Below, piece after piece: positions 4,051 through 63,492 of a stretch of DNA of 64,000 nt. The stretch's first letter is position 1. Each line of letters begins with the position of its first letter. A model generated the notes under the pieces. It was not told the origin of the DNA and did not search any database. It saw only the letters and a program-made list of their open reading frames with translations. This stretch comes from a virus. The stretch is taken from the IMG/VR virus record IMGVR_UViG_3300008050_000030. One strand, given 5' to 3'. Made by a program: the position numbers and the translations under genes.

Positions 4051-4432
4051 GGCCGTCGCCGACTTCACCTTCTCCGTCCTGAAGACCCAGGTCGACGGCT
4101 ACGAGGCCGTCAAGAACGGCGTGAAGGAGGTCCTCGGCGACAACTCCGCCCCGCAGGTGGTCGACCTCGTCACCTCCATCGTCAAGCTGCAGGTGGGCGA
4201 GGACGAGGCCCACAGCCCGATGCTGAAGAGCCTCGTCGACGACCTCGGGGTCGACGAGGACGAGGTGGAGCTCGCCCAGGACATCATCCTGGCGGGCCTC
4301 GACATCACCGCCCTCATCGCCCAGGCCGTCAACAGCGGCAACCCGAAGGCGGTGCTGTGGCAGATCATGGGGCAGGTCAGCCAGATCATCCCCGAGCTCG
4401 AAGCGGACATCGCCGCGATCAAGCAGGGCTGA
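3929..4432 (+). CDS. hypothetical acidic protein (167 aa)
   Basis: ATG after GAGGGTGGG; high GC3 from the start; +1 frame relative to the upstream ORF. Confidence 0.6.
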   Translation, partial: GMTPPHPENSQMPRFRRRPITIRNSPPVATTRGDVLDSDGEAVADFTFSVLKTQVDGYEAVKNGVKEVLGDNSAPQVVDLVTSIVKLQVGEDEAHSPMLKSLVDDLGVDEDEVELAQDIILAGLDITALIAQAVNSGNPKAVLWQIMGQVSQIIPELEADIAAIKQG

Positions 4433-4512: not shown

Positions 4513-4794
4513 GTGGCTCATCCGTCTGTGCAGATCCCCGTCCTGTGCGAGGGGAAGCTCCAGCCGAACCCCGCCGTCATCAGCGCCAGCGAAGGCGACG
4601 TGACGATCCTGGTGGGCGCCAGCGCGCTGGTCTACCCCCGCACCGGAGTGGTGCGTCAGCTCATCAACCACTGCTACGAGGCCGACACGGTCCTGCAGGA
4701 CCACCTCCCCTACAAGGTCAAGACCTTCCAGCTCCTGGCAGCCCTCAAGAGGCTCGGGGTGTTCGGGCAGCGAGCGCGAGGCTGTGCCGCGTGA
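4513..4794 (+). CDS. hypothetical protein (93 aa)
   Basis: GTG 5 nt after AAGGAG; overlaps the ligase start by 11 nt. Confidence 0.55.
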   Translation: MAHPSVQIPVLCEGKLQPNPAVISASEGDVTILVGASALVYPRTGVVRQLINHCYEADTVLQDHLPYKVKTFQLLAALKRLGVFGQRARGCAA

Positions 4795-6991
4795 TCTCAA
4801 ACCGCTGAAGGAGTTCGCCCCGGGCCTACCTGAGAAAGGTCGGGCCCGGGGTCTCCCTGCGGTCAAGGGGCGCCAGACCTGGGAACTGGCAGTACAAGAC
4901 CACGACGCTCATCGAGCGGGCAGGCACTTTGATCTTAGGTTGGGAGACCCCTCGACGGGTGTCGCGCACTCCTGGGCGTTGCCCAAGGCGAAGCTCCCCG
5001 GCCCCGGGGAGCGCCCCGTGCTCGCGGTACAGCAAGGCGACCACACCTTGGAGTACATGGACTTCCGCGGGAAGATCCCCTCGGGGTACGGCGCTGGGAC
5101 CGTGAAGCGGCATCTGCGGGACCAGGCGGAGGTCTTCCACGCAGATCCCGACAAGATCAAGTTCAACCACTACCGCGGCTCGGGGCACGACGAGTACATC
5201 CTGCGGCGCACCAAGGACAAGAACTGGCTGCTGCAGAACGTGACTCGGCACTCGGGGCGCACACCCGCCATGCCCAAGCCCAAGTACAAGGAGGAGAAGC
5301 GCGAGGCCCAGCTGACCCCCGAGGATGAGGGCAAGGTCTGGGCGCCGAAGGCGGACGGGTCTCACAACGTCTTCGTGCTGGAGAAGGGGAGGCCGATCCG
5401 TGCCTTCTCACACAGGCCGGCGAAGGCGCGGCGCACTGGCCTGATCGAGCACTCCCACAAGGTCCCCGGCCTGATGGACAAGAAGGTCCCCTCTCACCTG
5501 GATGGCACGATCGTCCGTGGGGAGATCTTCGCACGCCCGCATGGAGGAGGGCGACCTCTCCCTGCTGAGCGAGTCAGCGGCCTGCTCAACGCAGGGGTCT
5601 GGAAGTCCCGGAAGGGGCAGGAAGAGCACGGTCCGCTCGAGGTCATGACCTTCGACGTCGCCAGGTACCGCGGCAAGGACATGTCGGCTGCGCCCTACTC
5701 CGAGAAGCTGCGAGTGCTGAAGCAGGTCCAGGCGGAGTTCCCCGGCCTCAAGAGGACCCCAGTGGCCCGGACGAAGTCGGAGAAGCTCCAGATGCTGGAG
5801 GCCATCCGGCGCAAGGAGCACCCGCTCACCGATGAGGGCATCGTCGAGTGGGATCTCGCCGAGGGCACGAGGCCGAAGAAGTACAAGTTCAAGCCGGACG
5901 AGGACCTGGAGATCGTCGGCTTCTTCAAGACCAAGGGGGGCAAGTACGAGGGCACGCACGTCGGCGGCGTGCTGGTCAAGGACCCCAAGGGCAACGTCAG
6001 TCGTGTCGGCACCGGCTTCACCGACGACTTCCGCCGGCTGGCCCACGAGAAGCCCGAGCTCCTCATCGGGCGCACAGCCAAGATCACCTCGATGGGCAAG
6101 TACCCCAGCGGCAAGCTCCGCATCCCCTCCTTCCAGGGCTTGCACCCCGAGAAGAACGACCCCGACGACCTCAAGAAGCTCGAGGAGGCCGGGGTAACGC
6201 TGGAGCAGATGACCCGCACGAAGAAGGCGCACATCACCATCCTCACGGGCGGCATGGGAGCAGGCAAGAGCACTTGGGCCGAGAAGCATCGGGGCAAGTT
6301 CGACTTGGTCCTGGGGACAGACACGGGCAGCCCAGACGGGAAGGGCGGGTACAGCAGCCCCTCGAAAGAGACGAGGGACCGCATTCGCCAGGAGAAGGAT
6401 GAGCAGGCACTTGCGGCCCACAGGGCAGGGAAGCGAGTGTTGCTGGAGGGTTTCCCCAAGGGGATTCTCCAACACCCGAGGTCTCTGGCCGCAGCCGATC
6501 AACGGCTGGTCATGGGGACAGGGCCCGTGAGAAGGCTGTTCCGTGTCGCGAAGCGCTCAAGGCAGCGGGGAACCTCCACGCTAGAGGATTTGGCCTACGC
6601 AGCTGGGACGTTCAAAACGGACCGGGAGAGCTACAGGAAGATCAAAGAGCACGGGCCCCTCACAAAGGTGGCCTCAGCACTGCTGCGCGGGAAGACGGCC
6701 GCCCTGCTCCCACTCAACAAGCCCGTCGTCGTCTCCAAGACGAAGCAGAAGCACATCGACAGCTGGGAGAAGCGCAAGGGCAAGGAGGACCTGGTCTCGA
6801 CCAACCTGGGCACCGTGGCGTACAACCCCAGCAGGAAGACGATGCACGTGGAGTTCGCCAAGGGTGGCCTGTACAGGTACTCCGGGGTCTCCCCGGAGAC
6901 CTACGCCGGCGTGCTGAAGGCGAAGTCCCACGGCAAGCACTTCCACAAGCACGTGAAGGAGCCGGGGTTCCGGTACAGGAGGCTGGTGTGA
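4784..6991 (+). CDS. multidomain nucleic-acid repair enzyme: LigD-type 3'-phosphoesterase + ATP-dependent ligase + P-loop polynucleotide-kinase-like + KTSC domain
   Basis: PE motifs (HFDLRLGD, SWALPKA, FRGKIPSGYGAG); ligase motifs I KADG, III HLDGTIV, IV DEGIVEW, V KKYKFK, plus VGTGFTD; Walker A ILTGGMGAGKST; C-terminal KTSC-like YRYSGVSPETYAGVLKAKSHGKHF. Confidence 0.85.
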   Translation: MPRDLKPLKEFAPGLPEKGRARGLPAVKGRQTWELAVQDHDAHRAGRHFDLRLGDPSTGVAHSWALPKAKLPGPGERPVLAVQQGDHTLEYMDFRGKIPSGYGAGTVKRHLRDQAEVFHADPDKIKFNHYRGSGHDEYILRRTKDKNWLLQNVTRHSGRTPAMPKPKYKEEKREAQLTPEDEGKVWAPKADGSHNVFVLEKGRPIRAFSHRPAKARRTGLIEHSHKVPGLMDKKVPSHLDGTIVRGEIFARPHGGGRPLPAERVSGLLNAGVWKSRKGQEEHGPLEVMTFDVARYRGKDMSAAPYSEKLRVLKQVQAEFPGLKRTPVARTKSEKLQMLEAIRRKEHPLTDEGIVEWDLAEGTRPKKYKFKPDEDLEIVGFFKTKGGKYEGTHVGGVLVKDPKGNVSRVGTGFTDDFRRLAHEKPELLIGRTAKITSMGKYPSGKLRIPSFQGLHPEKNDPDDLKKLEEAGVTLEQMTRTKKAHITILTGGMGAGKSTWAEKHRGKFDLVLGTDTGSPDGKGGYSSPSKETRDRIRQEKDEQALAAHRAGKRVLLEGFPKGILQHPRSLAAADQRLVMGTGPVRRLFRVAKRSRQRGTSTLEDLAYAAGTFKTDRESYRKIKEHGPLTKVASALLRGKTAALLPLNKPVVVSKTKQKHIDSWEKRKGKEDLVSTNLGTVAYNPSRKTMHVEFAKGGLYRYSGVSPETYAGVLKAKSHGKHFHKHVKEPGFRYRRLV

Positions 6992-21017: not shown

Positions 21018-21087
21018 TAAAGGTAACGATCTCCGCGTCCCCACAACTGCCAGTTGGCAGCGGGGGACGGAGAAGGTCGGGTTTTCG

Positions 21088-21392
21088 TTACTTCTGGACG
21101 GCCTGCACCTTCGCGCGGGCCAGCACCAGCGCGAAGTCCTCCTTGGGGTGGCGCTCCCAGAGCCACTCGGGCCACTGGTCGAGCCAGGGGAGGACGCGGT
21201 CGGCGAGGTCGGTGGCGGCGCGGGCTTCACCGCGCTCCCGGACGTCGTTCAGGATGTCGATGTCCTCCTGCGTGGGCAGGGGGTACTGGGCGTAGCGGAG
21301 CGCCATGCCCTTGAACCGGGCGGTGGCCTCCTCCTTGCCGTTGCGGAGGGTGAGAGCGAGCAGCAGGCAGCGGTAGTACAGCATCTTCAGCA
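21088..21392 (-). CDS. hypothetical Trp-rich protein (101 aa)
   Basis: GGGATAAGGGAGATGAAGGAGATCCACATG context. Confidence 0.6.
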
Positions 21393-26719: not shown

Positions 26720-26995
26720 TGGTTCTCCGGGTTGGTGGTCTACGCCCCTTATCCCTCCCTCCAACTCTCAGTTGACGCTAAGGAGGGGCGCCACTCCCTC
26801 GACTGTCCCGGCGCACTCGCAACGGGACCAACACGAACTTCATGATCTTTGTCTCCAGGGGTGCGGTTGCCTTATCCCGCTGCGCACGCATGAAGGTGCA
26901 GGGGAGCGACCCTGGTGAAGGATCCCACGGGGAGGGTGTAGGGAGAGAGAGAGAGGGAGGGAGAGCAATGCTCGGGAGCCGGGATCTTGTCGAAC

Positions 26996-29852: not shown

Positions 29853-29965
29853 GATCTTCTCCGGGGAAGGGGTTCACACCTCTTATCCCCCCATACCAAC
29901 TGGAAGTTGTCAGCTAAGCAGGAGCGAGGGGGGACCCTCGCTGCGACTGCTTTCGGCCCGCCCCC

Positions 29966-30285
29966 CTAGAAGGGGGACAGGTCTTCCAGCCCGGTTCCGA
30001 ACCGGGCCCGGACTGCGTCCCACACGCGGCACGCCGCGTAGTACGGCAGCCCAATGGGTGCCGTCACCACCAGCAGGGCGGCCATGCCCGCGCGCTGCCA
30101 GCCCGACTCCGACGAGTCGGAGGCGAACCCGACCCCGGTCCCGTACAGGGACCCGAGCATCCTCGTCACCGTGACGGTGATGAAGGAGGCGGCGGCGAGA
30201 GCCAGCGGCCGGAGCGCTGCCGTGAGGCAGCGGGTCAGCAGGGTGGCGATGAACTTGGCGAGGAACTTGGCGATGGTCTTCATAT
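29966..30285 (-). CDS. small membrane protein (MKTIA-family paralog)
   Basis: MKTIAKFLAKFIATLL; CCCTGGAGTTCGATATG context. Confidence 0.6.
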
Positions 30286-30563
30286 CGAACTCCAGGGAAC
30301 GAAGACGGCAGGGGCGCGAGAAAACCTCGCAAAGCCTCCTGTTGGTGACACTTCTCTTATCCCCGAAACACCCCCTTTTTCTGCACTTTGCAGCTGCCCT
30401 CACGCCTCCCCATCGAGCGGGTAAGTGTGCCCCTCGGCCCCGGTCAAGGGGCGCGTTTGACGGGCGGGCCGCCCGAGCTATTGCTCCCAGAGTCAGCCAG
30501 GGGTTATTGCCCCTGACCTGTCGCGCGGGGATCGAACCCGCCTCCCTTCACACCTGTCGTCAG

Positions 30564-31151
30564 CTACCCAGCCGGACTCGAACCGGCCCTTTCCTGGATC
30601 GTCTGCTCTCGGTACCAGCACCAGTAGGTCTCGGTGTGGTGCCGCCGCCATGGGTTGTGCCCTTCCGGCTTCGGCACCAAGTCCCAGGCGACCCCGCGGC
30701 TGTGGGTGCGCCGAGGCCGCTGCTTGCAGCCGGGGTCGGGGTCGTGGATGCCCCAGTACTCCGACTTCAGCGCGTAGCAGTAGACGCGGCCCCTCCCTCG
30801 GCCCCAGCGGATGGCCTGATCGATCTCCCAGGGCAGGTCCGCCTCGGCGATCTCAGGCAGGTACCCGTGCTCCTCCACCAGCCGAGTGAGCATCCTCTGG
30901 CCCAGCGCCCTCCTCTCTGCCTTCGTCATCGGGATGAGCGGAGGCCGGGAGGGGAACTTGGGGAGCTCGCCCTCCCAGAGCCGCTTGCAGTCCCCGCAGA
31001 CGTCCTCGGCGAAGATGGACTCGAGCGGGCGCTCGACAGGGTCCTTGGGCAGCGCGTTGTGGTCGACGCCGGCGATGTGCGCCTTGCCTGTGTTCCACGG
31101 GTCCTTCAGGCCGAGCTGGTACTCGGTACGCCGGGCCTGGATGAACCTCAT
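30564..31151 (-). CDS. Cys/His-rich hypothetical protein, possibly HNH-like
   Basis: CGDC...CYALKSEYWGIHDPDPGC...H..H; preceded by a 12-codon uORF. Confidence 0.6.
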   Translation of the reverse strand: MRFIQARRTEYQLGLKDPWNTGKAHIAGVDHNALPKDPVERPLESIFAEDVCGDCKRLWEGELPKFPSRPPLIPMTKAERRALGQRMLTRLVEEHGYLPEIAEADLPWEIDQAIRWGRGRGRVYCYALKSEYWGIHDPDPGCKQRPRRTHSRGVAWDLVPKPEGHNPWRRHHTETYWCWYREQTIQERAGSSPAG

Positions 31152-31817: not shown

Positions 31818-31990
31818 CGGTCTTCTCCTTGTTGTGCGCGGTCACGCCCCGGCTGCGATGACGGCGACGAAGCCCGGGTCGGGACCGAAGTACCAGTAGA
31901 TCCGAGCACTCTTCCTTCTTGCCGAGTTCGATCACGTCTGTCTCCAGTTGGGTGTACCCGCCTTATCCCGTGAACAACTGTCGGTTGCTA

Positions 31991-32061
31991 ATCAGCGAGG
32001 GGGACTCGAACCCCCAACATCTCCTTTGCGCGGGAGGGCTCTACCATTGAGCTATCTCTGA
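31991..32061 (-). tRNA. tRNA-like gene with defective anticodon arm
   Basis: Canonical D-arm TAGCTCAATGGTAGAGC and T-arm GGGGGTTCGAGTCCCCC; acceptor stem with one A-G mismatch; anticodon arm is only CTCC/GGAG with an 8-nt loop lacking U33; no encoded CCA. Confidence 0.5.
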
Positions 32062-32097
32062 CACTCTTCTTATCCCCTCAACAACTCCCAGTTGACG

Positions 32098-33582: not shown

Positions 33583-33647
33583 ATGATCTCCGGGGGTTGT
33601 GGTCTGCTTCTCTTATCCCTCCGCGGCAACCCCCAGTTGACGCTAAG

Positions 33648-33697: not shown

Positions 33698-34225
33698 CTA
33701 CATGTCGTCGAAGCCGGCCGCCGCCGGCTCGTCGTCGGACACCCACTGGGTGCCCTCGGCGGCCTCGTCGGCGGGGACCGTGAAGGAGTCGGCCACCGCC
33801 TCGCGGCGGCGGCGCTCCTCGGCCAGGAAGGACGACGCCTGCGCCGCCTCGGCCTGCAGACCCGCCATGCGGGCGCGCATCTCCTCCATCTCCATCGCGA
33901 TGGCCTCCTGGCCGTTGCCGATGACCTCGAGCGCCGGGCGCTCGAGGCCGAAGATGGCGCTGACGGTGTCGTGGGCGGCGACGGCGGGGATCCCCGCCTC
34001 CGTCATCGTCGCGAAGGCCTTCGCGAAGGCCGTCGCCTTCGCCGTCGCCACCTCGACGCTCTGGAGGCGCACCTGGTGCACCCCCATCACGATGCCGGTG
34101 ATGGCGGACGTACCGAGCGTCACGAGGCTGGTGGCGTGTGCGAGTTCGTCTTCGAGGCGGGCCTTGCGCTCCTCGCGCTCGAGCTCCATCTCCTTGCGGC
34201 GGGCAGCGATCTGGTCCTTGGTCAT
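33698..34225 (-). CDS. hypothetical Ala/Glu-rich coiled-coil protein
   Basis: CCTGGAGACTGAGACCATG context. Confidence 0.65.
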   Translation of the reverse strand: MTKDQIAARRKEMELEREERKARLEDELAHATSLVTLGTSAITGIVMGVHQVRLQSVEVATAKATAFAKAFATMTEAGIPAVAAHDTVSAIFGLERPALEVIGNGQEAIAMEMEEMRARMAGLQAEAAQASSFLAEERRRREAVADSFTVPADEAAEGTQWVSDDEPAAAGFDDM

Positions 34226-34314
34226 GGTCTCAGTCTCCAGGTCGAGGGGAAGTTGAAGTCCTCGACACCTCTCTTATCCCTCCAACAACCGCCAGTTGCA
34301 CTCGGATCTAAAAG

Positions 34315-34385
34315 TTGAAAAACAAGCTCTCGGCGATGCCCAGGCCGAACGATCTCACCGAGAGCAGTCCTGATTGAGTGCGTTC
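34315..34385 (-). ncRNA. candidate small RNA with its own cassette promoter and a U-tract terminator
   Basis: GGGGGATAAGGAGAACG promoter copy at 34381-34396; 8-bp stem GCTCTCGG/CCGAGAGC (34326-34365) followed by TTGTTTTTCAACTTTTAG; no ORF. Confidence 0.35.
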
Positions 34386-34424
34386 TCCTTATCCCCCGAA
34401 ATCGGGGAGTTGCCGATCGGGGAG

Positions 34425-34455
34425 GAGGGACCTAGATCCCTCCTCCCCTTCTCCG
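34425..34455. terminator. GC-rich hairpin downstream of the kinase gene
   Basis: GGGGAGGAGGGA-CCTAGATCC-CTCCTCCCC. Confidence 0.55.
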
Positions 34456-34562
34456 CGGGCAGGCACCGAGGCGGGGTACAGACTCCACGCCTTCTGTTCG
34501 TGCGGGTCGCCCTCAGCCACGCTCTCGGGCATGAGTCCCGCCCTGCGGACTTTCGATCGAAC

Positions 34563-35012
34563 TCAGCCCCTATCCCAAGGAGGCACGGGGTTGCCGGCTC
34601 CCCAGGGGTGCTCCCACCTGGACCGCATGCGGCGAATCGCGTCCAGAGGGACCCCATGGCTGTTCCGCTTGAACAGCTGCTCGTCGGTGAGCCCTCCGTC
34701 GAAGAGGTCGACGATGAAGGTCTTCAGGCGGAGAGGGGAGTCGGAGAGCTGGAGGTAGGGCTCCAGCTCCCACCGAGTGCTGAAGGTGTTGGCCACCGCG
34801 GTGATGGGCTGCCCGGCCAGGACCGACTCCTGGGCGCCCTTGATGCACTGGGCGTGGGCCTGCGCCAGCTCCTGCGGCTTGAAGGTGTACGTGCCGTCCT
34901 CCGCGGTGAAGTAGTCGTCGGCCGAGAAGATGGCGGCGTCGAGGAGGTGAGCGAAGGAGGTCTTCCCCGAGCCGGGGAGGCCTCGAACGAGAATCAAGAT
35001 CTGGTCAGTCAT
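34563..35012 (-). CDS. P-loop kinase (AAA_33 / polynucleotide-kinase-like)
   Basis: ILVRGLPGSGKTSFAHLL Walker A near N-terminus; about 150 aa; ATGA-coupled. Confidence 0.7.
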   Translation of the reverse strand: MTDQILILVRGLPGSGKTSFAHLLDAAIFSADDYFTAEDGTYTFKPQELAQAHAQCIKGAQESVLAGQPITAVANTFSTRWELEPYLQLSDSPLRLKTFIVDLFDGGLTDEQLFKRNSHGVPLDAIRRMRSRWEHPWGAGNPVPPWDRG

Positions 35013-35142: not shown

Positions 35143-35778
35143 TCAGAGGACCGAGACGCCGCACAGCTCCCAGAGAGGCTGCGTGGTGATGTCGAGGACA
35201 TCGACGAGGCGGGCCAGCGCAGTGGCGCTGAGCTCGCGGACGTTCCAGTTCAGGGACACCTGGGTCTCCATCTCTCCGTGCCGCGGCCCGTTCACCCAGG
35301 ACTCCTCGGGGATGGGCCCGGGGCCGCGGTGGGTCGAGGAGCGGTCCAGGTGCGGGCGCTCGTCCATGTTGGTGAGTCGGCAGCCCTCGGACGCGGCCAG
35401 CTCCCGAATCTGCTTCCAGGTCTCGGCCTCGGCATCGAAGGCGATGAACTCCGTGGACAGGTCGATCATCTCCTTCTTCTCGGTCCACAGCCCGTAGACG
35501 CGCCAGCGCGACCGGCGGGCGACGACGTCCTGGAGCGGGCGGACGCGGGCCAGGAAGGCGCGCTCGCCGTCGGAGAGGTGCAGGAACTCCTCGGTCTGGT
35601 AGTGGAGGCGGATGGCCTCTCGCCACGCCGGAGAGTCGAGGCCGGCAGGTTGCTCGGGCGGCCACGTCAGGTTGGCGGCCTTGGCCAAGTCGGGCAGGTG
35701 GCAGGTGGAGACGTCGCGGAGGTACTCACCGTGGCGGTGAATCTCCCCGATGCTGTTGATGTGGAGACCGATCTGCAT
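35143..35778 (-). CDS. hypothetical protein (211 aa)
   Basis: High GC3; preceded by a 200-bp lower-GC leader carrying the TATACCTGCGAGAT box. Confidence 0.7.
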   Translation of the reverse strand: MQIGLHINSIGEIHRHGEYLRDVSTCHLPDLAKAANLTWPPEQPAGLDSPAWREAIRLHYQTEEFLHLSDGERAFLARVRPLQDVVARRSRWRVYGLWTEKKEMIDLSTEFIAFDAEAETWKQIRELAASEGCRLTNMDERPHLDRSSTHRGPGPIPEESWVNGPRHGEMETQVSLNWNVRELSATALARLVDVLDITTQPLWELCGVSVL

Positions 35779-35983
35779 TCATGTCCCTCGGTAAGCATTG
35801 TGGAGGTCGGGCCGACGATCGCATCGGAAAGTCTGTTGTGTCTTGTGCACGTCCGTCCTCTAGCAACCTCCTTATACCTGCGAGATCACAGCACTTTCAG
35901 GGCTAAAGATGCGGTCCTTTCGGTCCTAGATCGAGGTCACGACTCCTCTTGAAGTGATCACCTGTGGTTTTGATCTACTCTAT

Positions 35984-36166
35984 TTATGCCTCCAGGCGCC
36001 CGCGGATTTCACTCCGCAGGCGCCCATCAGCACGTTCTCTCAGCCGCCCCGTCAGGACGTAGATGACCTCGCCGATCGGGCGGGCGACGAGGTTGTGGGC
36101 GGTCCACTGCAGCCGGCGGGGAAGCCGGTCGAGCAGCGGGGCGAAGAAGCCAGTCTTCTGTTCCAT
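35984..36166 (-). CDS. hypothetical small protein
   Basis: CCTGGAGATCTGATG context; its stop lies inside a motif copy GGCATAAATAGAGTAGATC. Confidence 0.45.
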   Translation of the reverse strand: MEQKTGFFAPLLDRLPRRLQWTAHNLVARPIGEVIYVLTGRLRERADGRLRSEIRGRLEA

Positions 36167-42370: not shown

Positions 42371-42443
42371 TAGATGTATCTCCGTTGGGGCACGTGTGCC
42401 TGGGGTTGTAGTCGCCTTATCCCCTTCTTCTGGGCAGTTTTCA

Positions 42444-58159: not shown

Positions 58160-58321
58160 GTCGGGCCTCGGAGACCCTCTTGATCGTCTCGAACTCCTCT
58201 CGGGACACCAGCTGCCGCTCCGCCACGGTCAGGTGGGAGTACTCCCACTTGATGTCCTTGAAGTAGTAGTGGCTGAGCTTCAGCAGCGCGATCAGCGCGG
58301 CCTTCTCGTCGTCGGTCATGG
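58149..58321 (-). CDS. hypothetical small protein
   Basis: AAGGA SD; ATGA-coupled to the ligase. Confidence 0.5.
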
Positions 58322-59797
58322 CAGTCCTTGGAGCTTCGAGTTGACGCACTCCTCCACTTCCTTGTCGTCGCGGAAGGCGACGATGCGGGGGTGGATCATG
58401 GCGTTGGTCTTGCCCCCCTCGGAGACGTAGAAGCGCGTGGAGTACTCCACGCGCACGACCAGGGGGTAGAGGTCAGGGTCGGCCAGGTTGGCTTTGTTCT
58501 CCTTCGTCAGGCCGCCTCCGCAGTCGCAGAGGTAGATCAGGTCGCCATCGTCGGTGAGCTGGTGCAGCGCCACGCTGCCCACCTGCCCCTGGTACTTCCC
58601 CGTGCCCCAGGTGCCGAGGCCCTGGTCCGGCTCCCAGTAGGCGATGCAGTCGTCCTCGTAGACCGGCTTGAGCTTCCCAGTGAACTTGCCCGGCCGGTCC
58701 GGCTTGCCGCGGAAGTTGTAGGCCCGATCGCCGAAGACGCCCTTGGGGTCGACGACCACCCAGCCCTCCCAGCCGTTGTACTGCGCGAGGGCTCGGGCGA
58801 TCTGGTCGAGGTGGACCACCACCTCCTCCTTGCCCCCGCCCTCCATGAGGACGGCCGTCGGGAAGAGGGACCGTCGCTTGGAGTAGCGGAGCTCGCGCCC
58901 CTCCTGACCGGCGGCCCAGATCACCGCGCGGATGCCCTCCTCCCAGACCTGCTTGGGGGTGAGGGTCTGCAGAGGGAGCAGCCACTGCGCGTCCTTGGTG
59001 AGCTCCTCGATGGTCCCCATGCGCTCCGAGAAGGTGCGCGTGGTCCCCACCATCTCCCCGTCCCACGCCCCGATGTCCCAGACGTACATCGAGAGCCAGG
59101 GGTTGCCTCCGGACTGCTGGAGCTGGAGCGCCTTGTTGGTGTAGGACTTGGTGACCTGCTGGACGAAGGCGAAGTCGTCCTTGCCTCCTCGGTCGGCGAC
59201 GAGCTCCCCCAGCAGGATGGAGTTCGGAGGGATGACGCCCTCCCGCAGCATCACGAGGACCTCCTCGTAGAGCATGGGGAAGCGCTCGGCCCAGAGGCGG
59301 TAGCTCTCCCCCTCCGCCTCTCGGTCATGGGTGGGCCGCATCCGACGGCTGTAGATCTCCACGTCGTCGTCGGTGGTGCGGATGACGTGCATCATCCCCT
59401 CGCGCTTCCGCCCGAAGAGCACGCCCTTGCCCAGCAGCACCTTCTTGAGGAGCGTGGCGGACAGCGTGTTGTCCGGCTTGTAGAAGCAGAGGGAGAGCGG
59501 CAACTGCTCGTCGGGGAGCAGGGCGATGGGGGCCGCGTCCTCGCCGTCCTCGAGGTACCCCTTGTACACCTGCAGCATGATCTTTCGGGCGGCCCGGTCC
59601 AGGGCGTAGTCCTCGGCGTCGATCTCGTTGGACTTGCCCACGTTGATGGCGCTGTAGGTGTGGGAGGTCTCCTGCATGGCGCCCCCGAGGACGCCGTGGG
59701 TGGTGGTTTCGGTCGCGCCGTCGACGCGGATGGTCCAGGCCAGCGTGTGCTTGCGGCCCTTCTGTCGGAACTCGCGGGTCTCACCCGTCCAGGCCAT
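58316..59797 (-). CDS. ATP-dependent DNA (or RNA) ligase
   Basis: Motif I KREGMMHVIR...IYSRR; III LLGELV; IV EGWVVVDPKG; V GKLKPV; VI HPRIVAFRDDKEVEE. Confidence 0.75.
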   Translation of the reverse strand: MAWTGETREFRQKGRKHTLAWTIRVDGATETTTHGVLGGAMQETSHTYSAINVGKSNEIDAEDYALDRAARKIMLQVYKGYLEDGEDAAPIALLPDEQLPLSLCFYKPDNTLSATLLKKVLLGKGVLFGRKREGMMHVIRTTDDDVEIYSRRMRPTHDREAEGESYRLWAERFPMLYEEVLVMLREGVIPPNSILLGELVADRGGKDDFAFVQQVTKSYTNKALQLQQSGGNPWLSMYVWDIGAWDGEMVGTTRTFSERMGTIEELTKDAQWLLPLQTLTPKQVWEEGIRAVIWAAGQEGRELRYSKRRSLFPTAVLMEGGGKEEVVVHLDQIARALAQYNGWEGWVVVDPKGVFGDRAYNFRGKPDRPGKFTGKLKPVYEDDCIAYWEPDQGLGTWGTGKYQGQVGSVALHQLTDDGDLIYLCDCGGGLTKENKANLADPDLYPLVVRVEYSTRFYVSEGGKTNAMIHPRIVAFRDDKEVEECVNSKLQGLP

Positions 59798-60488: not shown

Positions 60489-63092
60489 CTACGCCTGGGC
60501 GTCGACCCCGTTGCTGGGCGCCTGGAGCGCTCCCAGCACCTTCTGACCGATCGCGGTGCCGCCGAGGACCGTGGCGATCGTGCCGCCGAAGTCCCCGCCG
60601 TCCAGCGCCGTCTGGACCTTGAGGGCCTCCGCGAGCTGGATGACCGTCTGCTTGTCGCCCAGGGCCATGATGGCCTGGGAGACGTCACCGCTGACGGCCT
60701 TCGCCTTGTCGGTGAACGCGGCCGTCTGCGCCTGGATGAGGGCCAGCTCGATGACCTGCTTCGCCTGGGAGAAGGCGATCTCCTGGTCCTGCCCGGCCTT
60801 GCGCCGGGCGATGGCCGCCGTGTTCCGCTCGCCGTCGATCGCGTCGGAGGCCTTCTGCAGCTCGAGCTGCTGCTCGTGCTCGGCCTTGGTGGCCAGCTGC
60901 CGCGCCTCCGTCTCGGTCTTGAGCCGCGCGATGGCTTCCAGCTCGAGCTTGGCGTTCAGCGCCGCGGTCGCATCCTTCACCTCCATGCCCTGACGCTTGA
61001 GGTCCTCACGCTCGGTGGTCGCCTTCAGCTGACGACGCGCCTGCTCCAGGCTCAGGTTGAGGGTGATGGCCTCGACGGCCGCGTTGGTCAGCTGCTCGCC
61101 GATCTGGCGGTGGAGGATCTGGATGTCCAGCACCTCCACGTCCTTCACGTGCAGCCCGTTCTCCTCGAAGCTCAGCCCCGCACGGGACGCGGCCTCGGTC
61201 TTCTTGCCCTCCTTCTTCTCGCCCAGGATGGTGTCGCGGACGAACGCCTCGCCGTTCTTGAAGAACGACTCGATGCTCTCCTTGCGCACCGCCGCCCGCA
61301 GCATGCTGCGCGCCCGGTCCGTGAGCATCTTCACGTAGTTGTCCACGGTGAACCACTTGCTGTCGTCGCCGGTGAAGTCGCACCGGAAGGACAGCTTGAG
61401 GTTCACCTTGACGTGGTCCGACGTCTCGACGGTGACCACGTCCGACACCTGGTTGTTGGCGACGCGCAGGTACACGTCGGTGATCAGGCGATCCGTCGTC
61501 TTCGGCTTGCCCGTGGACAGGCTGAAGTACTCCAGGTCCTCGTCGTACGCCAGCAGCACCGGGGCCGGGCCCGTCACCACTCGGCGGTTCCCCTGCTTGT
61601 CCACGATCTGGACCGCGTAGCCCGTGTGGATGTTGAGGAGCGGGGCGCCGTTGAAGCGGCCCGAGAGGGTCACCATCCGCGGCTCGGTGAAGTTGGACTT
61701 GCGGGTGAACTCGTCGCCCACCGCGGAGCCCGTGCCGTAGGAGACCGAGGACCGCGCGGCGACGGCGCCGTCGATGTTCTCGGTGCCCCCGCCAGCCCGA
61801 CGGATCTTCTTGTTCCGGCGCACCTGGCCCTCGGACACGGTGCCCGCCCGGGTGGACGGCGTGCCGCGCATGGCCCGGCGGAGGGCGTCGTTGTACTCCA
61901 TCACCTCCTGGTTGTTGGGGTACCAGTGGCCACACTGGCGGGGGGACAGGATGCGACGGACGATCACCTCCTCGACGGGGTTGGGGAGCAGCATCGCCGG
62001 CCCCTTGACCATGCGGATGACGCCCGTGGTGCGGTTCATGACGTACCGCGCGTCGCCCGCGGGGATGGCCACCGCGTAGGACTTGGCCTCGCCGTCGTAC
62101 TTCACGAACGAGACGTGCTCGGTCGGGAAGAAGATGGTGGTGTCCTTGCCCGTGATGAAGACCTCCTGGCCCTCCTCGAACTCGCGCCCCTTCTTGCCGT
62201 AGACCCCGTTGGTGTCCTTGAACCCCGCGATGAAGCGGAGGTGGACGCCCTGGATCGGCGACAGCTCGATGGGGCTGAAGATGCGAATCGGGTTGCCCGC
62301 CTCGTCGATCTCCTCGGAGTGGAACCGCTGCGTCGGCGCGGGGAACACCACCGCCGGGCCGCGGACGAACGACTTGTCGCCGCTCTCGTCGACCAGGATG
62401 CAGTACTCGAGCCGCTCCAGCGTCACCGCGTCGCGGACGTACGTCTTGTGCCGGTCCGGGACCACCTCCACGCCCGTGGGCGGGATGTAGTAGGACACGT
62501 CCGTGCCCTTGACCAGGTACAGCTTGCCCTCGGCCAGGTCGGCCGGGATGCCGCTGTCCGCCGAGGCGATCTCCGTCGAGGCGGTCTCCTCGCCCTGGTT
62601 CTCCGGGTTGGGGGCGGCCGGCTTCATGACCGCCGAGCCCCAGTTCTCCCGCGCGTCGTCCGCGTCGTAGACGCGGATCAGCAGGTACTGGTTGCTCCGG
62701 AGCTGGTGCCCCGGGATCAGCTCGACGTGCTGGTGCGGCCAGGGGACGAAGTTCGCCGGGCCGTTGATGACGACGCGGCGGCCCATGTCCAGCTCGGCGC
62801 TGGGGCGGCTGCCCTTGATCGGGAACGGGGCGTCGTCGGACGCCGGGTTCTCGAGGATGGCGTACTGGCCCTTCTCCACCAGGATGGCGTTGTGGACGGC
62901 GTCGTACATCTGGTCGACGGCCAGGATGGCGCGCTGGCGGTGGTCGTAGTTGACGGCCTGCTCGGCACCGCTGATCTTGACGACGGTGGGCCCCACGTGC
63001 ACGTGGACGACTCCGGTCGTCGACGTGTCCTGCACGAAGGCGTACTGCCCCACGGGCAGCACGAGGTCACTGTTGTTTCGGCGAGGATCCAT
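60489..63092 (-). CDS. major vault protein (MVP) homolog
   Basis: Colinear with eukaryotic MVP: repeat domains, then VVTVETSDHVKVNLKLSFRCDF (compare [22 protein letters not shown]), shoulder WFTVDNYVKMLTDRARSMLRAAVRKESIESFFKN, cap-helix coiled coil; CACCTGGAGATAGAGAATG start context. Confidence 0.85.
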   Translation of the reverse strand: MDPRRNNSDLVLPVGQYAFVQDTSTTGVVHVHVGPTVVKISGAEQAVNYDHRQRAILAVDQMYDAVHNAILVEKGQYAILENPASDDAPFPIKGSRPSAELDMGRRVVINGPANFVPWPHQHVELIPGHQLRSNQYLLIRVYDADDARENWGSAVMKPAAPNPENQGEETASTEIASADSGIPADLAEGKLYLVKGTDVSYYIPPTGVEVVPDRHKTYVRDAVTLERLEYCILVDESGDKSFVRGPAVVFPAPTQRFHSEEIDEAGNPIRIFSPIELSPIQGVHLRFIAGFKDTNGVYGKKGREFEEGQEVFITGKDTTIFFPTEHVSFVKYDGEAKSYAVAIPAGDARYVMNRTTGVIRMVKGPAMLLPNPVEEVIVRRILSPRQCGHWYPNNQEVMEYNDALRRAMRGTPSTRAGTVSEGQVRRNKKIRRAGGGTENIDGAVAARSSVSYGTGSAVGDEFTRKSNFTEPRMVTLSGRFNGAPLLNIHTGYAVQIVDKQGNRRVVTGPAPVLLAYDEDLEYFSLSTGKPKTTDRLITDVYLRVANNQVSDVVTVETSDHVKVNLKLSFRCDFTGDDSKWFTVDNYVKMLTDRARSMLRAAVRKESIESFFKNGEAFVRDTILGEKKEGKKTEAASRAGLSFEENGLHVKDVEVLDIQILHRQIGEQLTNAAVEAITLNLSLEQARRQLKATTEREDLKRQGMEVKDATAALNAKLELEAIARLKTETEARQLATKAEHEQQLELQKASDAIDGERNTAAIARRKAGQDQEIAFSQAKQVIELALIQAQTAAFTDKAKAVSGDVSQAIMALGDKQTVIQLAEALKVQTALDGGDFGGTIATVLGGTAIGQKVLGALQAPSNGVDAQA

Positions 63093-63370: not shown

Positions 63371-63492
63371 TGAACGCTCGAGACCTCTACCCTATGGTCG
63401 CACGGGGCGCCGGCGGTGGAGGTATGCACCGTTCTCTGCAGTACGGGGCTTATCCCCGGCATCCCGTGGGTCTTTCGCGGTAGGAGTCGTTC

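Follow-up and report, generated by a model that had tools for sequence, protein, structure and literature searches.

Short primary transcripts of phages include the OOP RNA of lambda, which is 77 nucleotides (nt) long, and the lambda 6S RNA, which originates from PR'-tR'. Their layout consists of a promoter and of an intrinsic terminator tens of nucleotides later, and it is conserved among related phages. In Pseudomonas phages, candidate noncoding RNAs that arise by premature termination in the 5' untranslated region (5' UTR) have been mapped and are conserved within genera (PMC10914365). Here we analyze a unit of the same layout, with the core TCGGCCNGGGCANCGCCG, that lies between a kinase gene and a gene for a 175-amino-acid (aa) protein in IMG/VR virus record IMGVR_UViG_3300008050_000030. 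The stretch analyzed, referred to as the window, comprises 64,000 nt and is contained in the 188-kb metagenome contig k141_382418 of ERZ27249009 in the European Nucleotide Archive. All descriptions of the unit are given in the minus-strand reading; between ~18 and 44 kb, genes are found on the minus strand only. Our favored reading, to which the sequence lends about an even chance, is that the unit is a self-contained RNA-only cassette, namely, a phage small-RNA gene that also stops transcription arriving from upstream.

The individual elements of the unit are as follows. (i) Hairpin 1 (GGGGAGGAGGGAUCUAGGUCCCUCCUCCCC, 34448..34419) has 15-nt arms that match at 93% according to repeat finding and folds into a stem of 13 bp that closes a 4-nt loop. 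GAUCGG comes next, and the structure is the generic cassette-end hairpin of the kinase operon. The preliminary description, made from the sequence before this analysis, had rightly noted the lack of a U-tract at this hairpin and had placed it at 34425-34455, about 6 nt off. (ii) A -35-like CAACT (34412..34408) precedes by 11 nt the promoter core GGGATAAG (34395..34388), in agreement with the promoter copy reported previously at 34388-34396. (iii) An 18-nt CA-rich segment, (A)CGCACUCAAUCAGGACU (34383..34366), is predicted to form a single-stranded 5' end. The putative transcription start at 34383-34381 is deduced by analogy with a tRNA-like cassette of the same window, in which the mature 5' end is located 6 to 7 nt past the motif. 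(iv) Hairpin 2 occupies 34365..34326, exactly as described before, and consists of an 18-nt apical region, GAUCGUUCGGCCUGGGCA, on a stem, GCUCUCGGUGA/UCGCCGAGAGC, that has 11 bp including one G·U and not the 8 bp given initially; its free energy is -20.2 kcal/mol. (v) The U-tract and tail (TTGTTTTTCAACTTTTAG/UUGUUUUUCAACUUUUAG, 34325..34308), whose sequence and location had been given correctly, adjoin hairpin 2, with UUGUUUUU (7 T in 8 positions) directly abutting the stem. The TTAG of this tail is part of the TTAG(C) element that precedes most promoters. The 3' end of the RNA is expected near 34318, and the promoter and terminator positions together predict a small RNA of ~63 to 66 nt (34383..34318).

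The terminator is a rare element. In the window, whose GC content is 64 to 71% throughout, sites with at least 6 T in 8 bases amount to 14 in 128 kb (both strands), and among them the site at 34325 on the minus strand alone has a clean stem-loop abutting it on the coding strand. The claim that this is the sole U-tract terminator of the window was thus borne out for coding strands. A stricter terminator scan returned 8 sites versus 7.3 in shuffled sequences, hence no excess, and it misses hairpin 2 because of the large loop. The element has the make-up of an intrinsic terminator, with a GC-rich stem-loop and a U-rich tract immediately 3' of the stem.

The promoter core belongs to a family of ~25 copies. 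The pattern CAACT-N13-18-GGGATAAG occurs 8 times versus 0.01 expected, and GGGATAAGRAG with at most 1 mismatch occurs 12 times versus 1.2 expected; all occurrences are on the minus strand. When aligned, the copies read (TTAGC)(gt)CAACTgggAGTTG, 7 to 9 nt, GGGATAAGagaaGTAGACCAccAACCCctGGAG, 6 to 9 nt, and ATG. A position weight matrix built from 21 gene-proximal copies, for which leave-one-out scores of the family range from 6.5 to 32.7 bits, retrieved 25 sites above 12 bits in 128 kb (both strands), and 25 of these 25 are on the minus strand. The copy of the unit scores 17.8 bits. Its spacing of 11 nt between CAACT and the core is the same as that of the copy at 42423, and other family members carry AACTG or CAACT 11 to 14 nt before the core. 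Since the motif is found 6 nt ahead of the tRNA-like RNA, it is read as a promoter with a start ~5 to 7 nt downstream and not as a translation signal. On the level of sequence, the unit has a predicted promoter of its own directly upstream, and it is not protein-coding, as detailed below.

Evidence for a maintained unit comes from the only known related phage, which shares the promoter family and ~9 kb of synteny, with protein identities of 35 to 72% (35 to 65% for the neighbors of the kinase). Its kinase homologue is 72% identical and is found on contigs of ERZ27249081, of three JGI (Joint Genome Institute) samples, and on Ga0080013_1002674; kinase homologues with ~55% identity (L013 and L015 to L018) belong to unrelated lower-GC phages that lack the promoter motif. 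At the orthologous junction of the relative, the kinase stop directly abuts the orthologue of promoter P2, which drives the next gene, and the 262 nt corresponding to 34562..34301 are absent. Taken alone, this gap would have suggested a nonconserved insert, a view that was overturned by the unit found 1.7 kb further downstream, between two small membrane-protein genes (L014 2149-2266). There, a different GC hairpin serves as cassette end at the same relative position (L014 2149-2175) and is followed by the core GGGATAAG (L014 2177-2184; 17.5 bits) with GAACTT 13 nt upstream, a CA-rich segment of 24 nt between core and hairpin, a hairpin with a perfect 12-bp stem around GUCGUUUCGGCCCGGGCA (L014 2209-2220/2239-2250), and the tail AUCUUUUCAACUUAGG with a weaker T-tract, AUCUUUUCAACUU. 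The next full promoter, with an operator-like palindrome, comes directly afterwards (L014 2262-2297).

In a BLASTN comparison, window positions 34396..34312 aligned with L014 2176-2263 at 76% identity (E = 3e-7), an extent that runs exactly from the promoter core to the tail. The register-corrected alignment of the stems contains the double compensatory changes U-A to C-G and A-U to G-C, a conversion of G·U into G-C, and an additional A-U pair in the relative. All stem cells (100%) are paired in both copies; when the partners were slid, 32 to 55% remained paired and no double changes were seen. Of the columns in the apical region, 16 of 19 are identical, and so is TTTTCAACTT of the tail. The hairpin lies 22 to 24 nt after the promoter core in both phages, and the predicted RNA lengths are ~65 nt in the window and 69 nt in the relative. 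Conservation in related elements had been named as a check in the preliminary description, and the relative retains the core, a 5' segment of ~24 nt, the long hairpin with its compensated stem, the tail motif, and an equal promoter score. The module, promoter and hairpin included, has evidently shifted position within the same gene neighborhood. With a covariance model of the two copies (R1), one copy per genome was detected in the sequence at hand.

Outside these two phages, a megablast search of the region against phage and plasmid collections gave no match, and patterns for the hairpin, for loop plus tail, and for a second gene-less unit at 35990 (exact or degenerate) had no matches in viral contigs (IMG/VR) or GTDB genomes. 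When metagenomes were scanned for the P2 leader pattern, nothing but the relative came up. Searches for mobile-element ends revealed no convincing terminal repeats and no copies of the unit elsewhere. A likeness of CCCCG-AUUU-CGGGG-GAUAAGG to type I-E repeats raised the idea of a viral single guide RNA (sgRNA) or CRISPR-repeat mimic, which was judged to be a by-product of the generic GGGATAAG motif.

If the unit is a small-RNA gene, its operation can be sketched as follows. An RNA polymerase using the CAACT-11 nt-GGGATAAG promoter would start ~6 nt past the motif, near 34382, transcribe the 18-nt unpaired CA-rich 5' segment and then the 40-nt hairpin, and be released in the U-tract near 34318, yielding a discrete RNA of ~65 nt with a free 5' end, a terminator hairpin, and a U-tail. 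From its layout, we infer that this RNA may act via the 5' segment or the conserved large loop on a partner in the host or the phage. Hairpin 2 would also halt polymerases that read through from the kinase operon, because the terminator is strong by prediction and has the same orientation, so that the 175-aa gene would be driven by P2 alone.

In kind, the predicted product is a phage short primary transcript, with promoter, hairpin, and intrinsic terminator, that has no sequence relative outside the phage pair. It shares with OOP, 6S, and the Pseudomonas phage candidates the promoter, the intrinsic terminator tens of nucleotides later, and the conservation among related phages, and it differs from them in that it has no sequence or Rfam relationship to any. 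Unlike lambda OOP, it is antisense to no gene, since the plus strand carries none at 34300-34400, and unlike the PR'-tR' and 5'-UTR types, it is followed by a separate full promoter. Hfq-type trans-acting small RNAs resemble it in their unpaired 5' segment (~18 nt here), terminator hairpin, U-tail, and own promoter, but no target was found for it in the phage sequences and its seed is only moderately conserved. Compared with classical Rho-independent terminators, the GC-rich stem of 11 to 12 bp, the adjoining U-rich tract, the direction of the upstream genes, and the compensatory changes are alike, whereas the dedicated promoter 22 to 24 nt ahead in both phages and the large conserved 18-nt apical region are not. 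Moreover, the unit is the only one of its kind, as the other cassette ends of the region are GC hairpins with TTAGC.

A number of observations weigh against a small-RNA gene. (i) The promoter score of 17.8 bits is at the weak end of the family range. (ii) The window copy folds no better than shuffled sequences (z = -0.63); the copy of the relative folds well below them (z = -3.7). (iii) No Rfam family was matched, the best local matches having E values of at least 0.1 and scores far below gathering, so that the Rfam and covariance check proposed initially turned out negative; within the window, a single tRNA reaches the gathering score. (iv) With n = 2 homologues the covariation carries no statistical weight, as 121 of 500 shuffles reach the observed value, and conservation of the stem is equally expected for a plain terminator. 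(v) The 5' segment has only ~62% column identity with that of the relative, including a 2-nt indel. (vi) Duplex energies of the 5' segment, loop, and tail against the window and L009/L014 were no better than those of shuffled queries. (vii) A recent transfer of the unit between the two lineages may have raised the identity; in addition, the conserved CAACTT of the tail may belong to the following promoter as a DNA element and not to the RNA. Consequently, the RNA of 60 to 80 nt announced in the preliminary description gained from the conservation of promoter and terminator and found no backing in an Rfam match, a phage target, or a fold better than shuffled sequences; it remains a predicted RNA.

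The main rival, which we consider possible though clearly short of an even chance, is that the unit acts as terminator or insulator only. Hairpin 2 would stop transcription of the kinase operon, and the promoter copy would be inactive or make a functionless stub, carried along with the generic GC hairpin and promoter boundary. This is consistent with a canonical terminator that is unique within the window, with compensatory stem changes as expected for any terminator, and with the fact that no target, Rfam family, or significant extra structure was found. Loop conservation is not special either, because the cassette-end hairpin at 36022..35993 is conserved including its loop in both phages. 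The unit also uncouples the 175-aa gene from the kinase operon, and the relative has no terminator at that junction. Left unexplained by a mere terminator, however, are the intact 8/8 core and the -35-like element that stand ahead of the hairpin in both phages (17.8 and 17.5 bits) in different gene contexts. In addition, the upstream gene is already ended by a GC hairpin in both phages, and an apical region of 18 nt exceeds what is usual in efficient terminators and is nevertheless conserved.

An improbable alternative is a promoter-proximal regulated terminator, comparable to lambda PR'-tR' or to premature termination in a 5' UTR, at which a short RNA would be made constantly and an antiterminator or signal would permit timed read-through. 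A promoter followed by a strong terminator within 70 nt, upstream of genes on the same strand, is indeed seen in both phages, and many RNAs of this type are on record for the Pseudomonas phages cited above. Against it stands the full promoter immediately after the terminator (34298..34273 in the window; L014 2262-2297), because of which the downstream genes are independent of read-through in both phages. Furthermore, no alternative antiterminator fold is apparent in either copy, and no factor of the Q, N, or LoaP type was identified, although no systematic search for such factors was made.

It is quite unlikely that recombination between promoter and terminator modules left the unit behind as an empty or decayed cassette, functionless now. 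The region is mosaic, the 262 nt are missing at the orthologous junction, the neighboring genes differ by indels, and the geometry from promoter to GTG (29 nt, AGGA being 9 nt ahead of the GTG) looks like that of an ordinary gene start. Nonetheless, the relative has a homologous unit with maintained stem and promoter, and neutral noncoding DNA would be expected to be unalignable between phages whose proteins are 35 to 72% identical.

The same geometry is the basis of the last alternative, a microprotein. The preliminary description had stated that no open reading frame (ORF) is present, which does not hold in the strict sense: besides an ORF of 47 codons (34532..34389), there is one of 16 codons inside the hairpin (VRSFGLGIAESLFFNF*, GTG at 34358 to TAG at 34308). 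The latter, if translated, would yield a peptide rich in Phe, which might be a leader peptide coupled to the terminator. It has a canonical promoter, a Shine-Dalgarno sequence (AGGA), and the canonical cassette spacing of 29 nt between core and start, and its codon log-odds on an off-frame background are 19.9 (P ~0.001 versus dinucleotide shuffles). On a base-composition background, however, this significance disappears: the score is 1.45 versus 9.1 ± 7.0 for real 16-codon windows, and even the best window of the transcript, at 5.5, lies inside the true intergenic range of 1.6 to 6.5. Rare codons make up 4 of 16 (TTT twice, at 0.5 per 1000, AGA, and TTG), the start codon lies within the paired stem, and the U-tract precedes the stop, so that terminated RNAs would lack a stop codon. 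The relative lacks the start codon, its frame continues past the TAG, and the copies differ by nonsynonymous second-position changes (CTG/CCG, ATC/ACC, and GAG/GTG), which together with the unconserved start and stop argue for constraint on RNA or DNA structure and not on protein. The pheL/trpL leader-peptide attenuators are likewise poor models, given that the ORF is absent in the relative and that no alternative antiterminator fold is predicted. The microprotein was therefore rejected as hardly credible and is largely refuted by the relative. On the available sequence evidence, a small-RNA gene fits better than either a decayed cassette or a microprotein.

The best analogues of the unit are two other gene-less cassettes of the same phage. 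The first is the tRNA-like cassette at 32094..31985 (minus strand), with the promoter core at 32076-32069 and the RNA at 32062-31990. This RNA scores 45.4 bits with the Rfam tRNA model, and ARAGORN assigns to it a 4-base anticodon in an 8-nt loop. The counterpart in the relative (L014 4119-4215, plus strand, or 4123-4205 in a narrower delimitation) is 77% identical, has a GCAA tetraloop at the position of the anticodon loop, and is not called by ARAGORN; the RNA is probably nondecoding. Because the promoter is located 6 nt before this RNA, these phages appear to use such cassettes for stable RNAs. The hairpin unit resembles it in promoter type, absence of a gene, conservation at the nucleotide level, and the TTAG(C) plus next promoter that follow, and it differs in that its RNA forms no cloverleaf according to either ARAGORN or the Rfam tRNA model. 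Two further ARAGORN tRNAs (29953-30029 and 30563-30657) overlap ORFs and lack Rfam support.

The second analogue, at 35990..35900 (minus strand; L009 9668-9765, plus strand, in the relative), combines a weak motif similar to the promoter (GGCATAAA, 18.1 bits; the relative has GGGATGAG) with ~80 nt of predicted transcribed sequence and a final TTAGC. It is 82 to 88% identical between the phages while the flanking genes differ; the RNAalifold consensus contains two compensatory pairs, and an internal short ORF is not conserved. It is a further candidate for a small RNA or leader. Of the similar mini-units listed in the preliminary description, those at 26878 and 31969 do have the promoter, but they also have a Shine-Dalgarno sequence and a short ORF, and the third, at 63456, carries only a weak copy of the motif (11.9 bits). 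A more speculative and improbable extension is that the hairpin RNA, the tRNA-like RNA, and the 35990..35900 unit form an RNA-based counter-defense set, in which they would serve as protein-binding decoys or regulators against host RNA-targeting defense or repair, with the 18-nt loop as recognition site and not as a base-pairing small RNA. The RNA-only cassettes sit beside the polynucleotide-kinase-like P-loop kinase and ligases.

With regard to the promoter family as a whole, a GC hairpin, a brief stretch of pyrimidines, and TTAGC come ahead of most members. TTAGC shows a strong strand bias (17 minus-strand versus 3 plus-strand copies), and its place is nearly always after the GC hairpin with its pyrimidines and before the -35 CAACT of the promoter that follows; minus-strand examples are at 33646, 32820, 32101, 29917, 28570, 27120, and 17769. 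In the relative, TTAGC is fused to the operator-like palindrome as TTAGCAACTGnCAGTTG. It may be a termination or processing signal or else an upstream promoter or operator element. Between 18500 and 42500 (minus strand), the promoters carry the palindrome CAACTnnnAGTTG at the -35 position, which in one subclass is replaced by GAAAnTG, and the core GGGATAAG is unlike a sigma-70 -10 box in that the final T is absent. The palindrome and the atypical core suggest a phage-specific sigma factor, polymerase, or regulator. The core is similar to the start-associated sequence of cluster K mycobacteriophages, GGGATAGGAGCCC; here, it is located 25 to 31 nt before start codons, and a separate GGAG is the Shine-Dalgarno sequence. 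The promoter pattern gave only single chance matches in IMG/VR. At 21030-21095 on the plus strand, the inner part of a strong hairpin (-30 kcal/mol) includes the promoter palindrome CAACTGCCAGTTG, and the hairpin is followed by TTTTCGTT; it is antisense to minus-strand genes, at the gene junction 21088-21175.

Upstream of the unit, the kinase gene (AAA_33; 35012..34563, minus strand) is followed by a lineage-specific spacer of 114 nt (34562..34449), which contains the start of the 47-codon ORF and for which no significant structure was detected at 34552-34456 (z = -0.25 versus shuffles). This ORF, a metagenome annotation, traverses hairpin 1 and stops at the TAA of the promoter core; it was rejected as a gene after an exhaustive HMMER search of 1.8 billion representatives returned itself and repeat-protein artifacts. 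Two other candidates were also rejected, namely, a C-terminal extension of the kinase into the spacer, as every homologue terminates at PPWER, and a degenerate promoter, GGGATAGG at 34576, which scores -1.5 bits and codes for the kinase C terminus.

Downstream, promoter P2 (CAACTGGCGGTTG...GGGATAAG, 34298..34273, minus strand, with an operator-like palindrome) belongs to the 175-aa gene (34225..33698, minus strand). Searches with its protein (tblastn, related-locus search, and word-indexed protein search) gave only self-matches; an orthologue with 35% identity, missed by the word search, was recovered by synteny. For a neighboring protein of 318 aa, only self was found. The leader of the 175-aa gene (34226-34272, minus strand) forms a hairpin, GUCGAGG...CCUCGAC, immediately before the Shine-Dalgarno sequence, which the relative (L009 10480-10527) keeps as GUCGGG...CCCGAC with a compensatory change of A-U to G-C. 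Both phages have UUCAAC in the loop (window, UUCAACUU), a motif shared with the tail of the predicted small RNA.

The region is mosaic, with an evidently high turnover of cassettes around 35143-36166 relative to the other phage. Between the 211-aa gene at 35143-35778 (minus strand) and a 36-aa ORF of the relative, similarity is confined to the first 24 residues of the former; the relative has nothing that corresponds to the 60-aa gene at 35984-36166 (minus strand). Two ATP-dependent ligase-like genes are found at 4784-6991 (plus strand; LigD 3'-phosphoesterase, ligase OB, and KTSC domains) and 58316-59797 (minus strand), which together with the P-loop kinase hint at a nucleic-acid repair toolkit. 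In an 867-aa protein (60489-63092, minus strand), Pfam recognizes the shoulder domain of the major vault protein (E = 2.6e-25) and Vault_3 repeats (E = 4.7e-10). Unannotated ORFs of the uncultured phages LR756500, LR756501, and LR756503 (462 kb and 735 kb) match it at 38% identity; published uncultured phages with homologues of this protein have sizes of 460 to 735 kb.

In huge uncultured phages with high GC content, small RNAs are largely unexplored. Should the unit be merely a terminator, the finding would be an ordinary one. Specialists would find little surprise in the unit unless the RNA-only cassettes prove to be a decoy or counter-defense set. For a small RNA, it offers a concrete and testable candidate, with a recognizable promoter, a clean terminator, a homologue with compensatory changes, and two more RNA-only cassettes nearby. 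It also gives a view of how this lineage may punctuate its transcription, by means of a promoter in many copies, GC hairpins that are followed by TTAGC, and a single genuine U-tract terminator.

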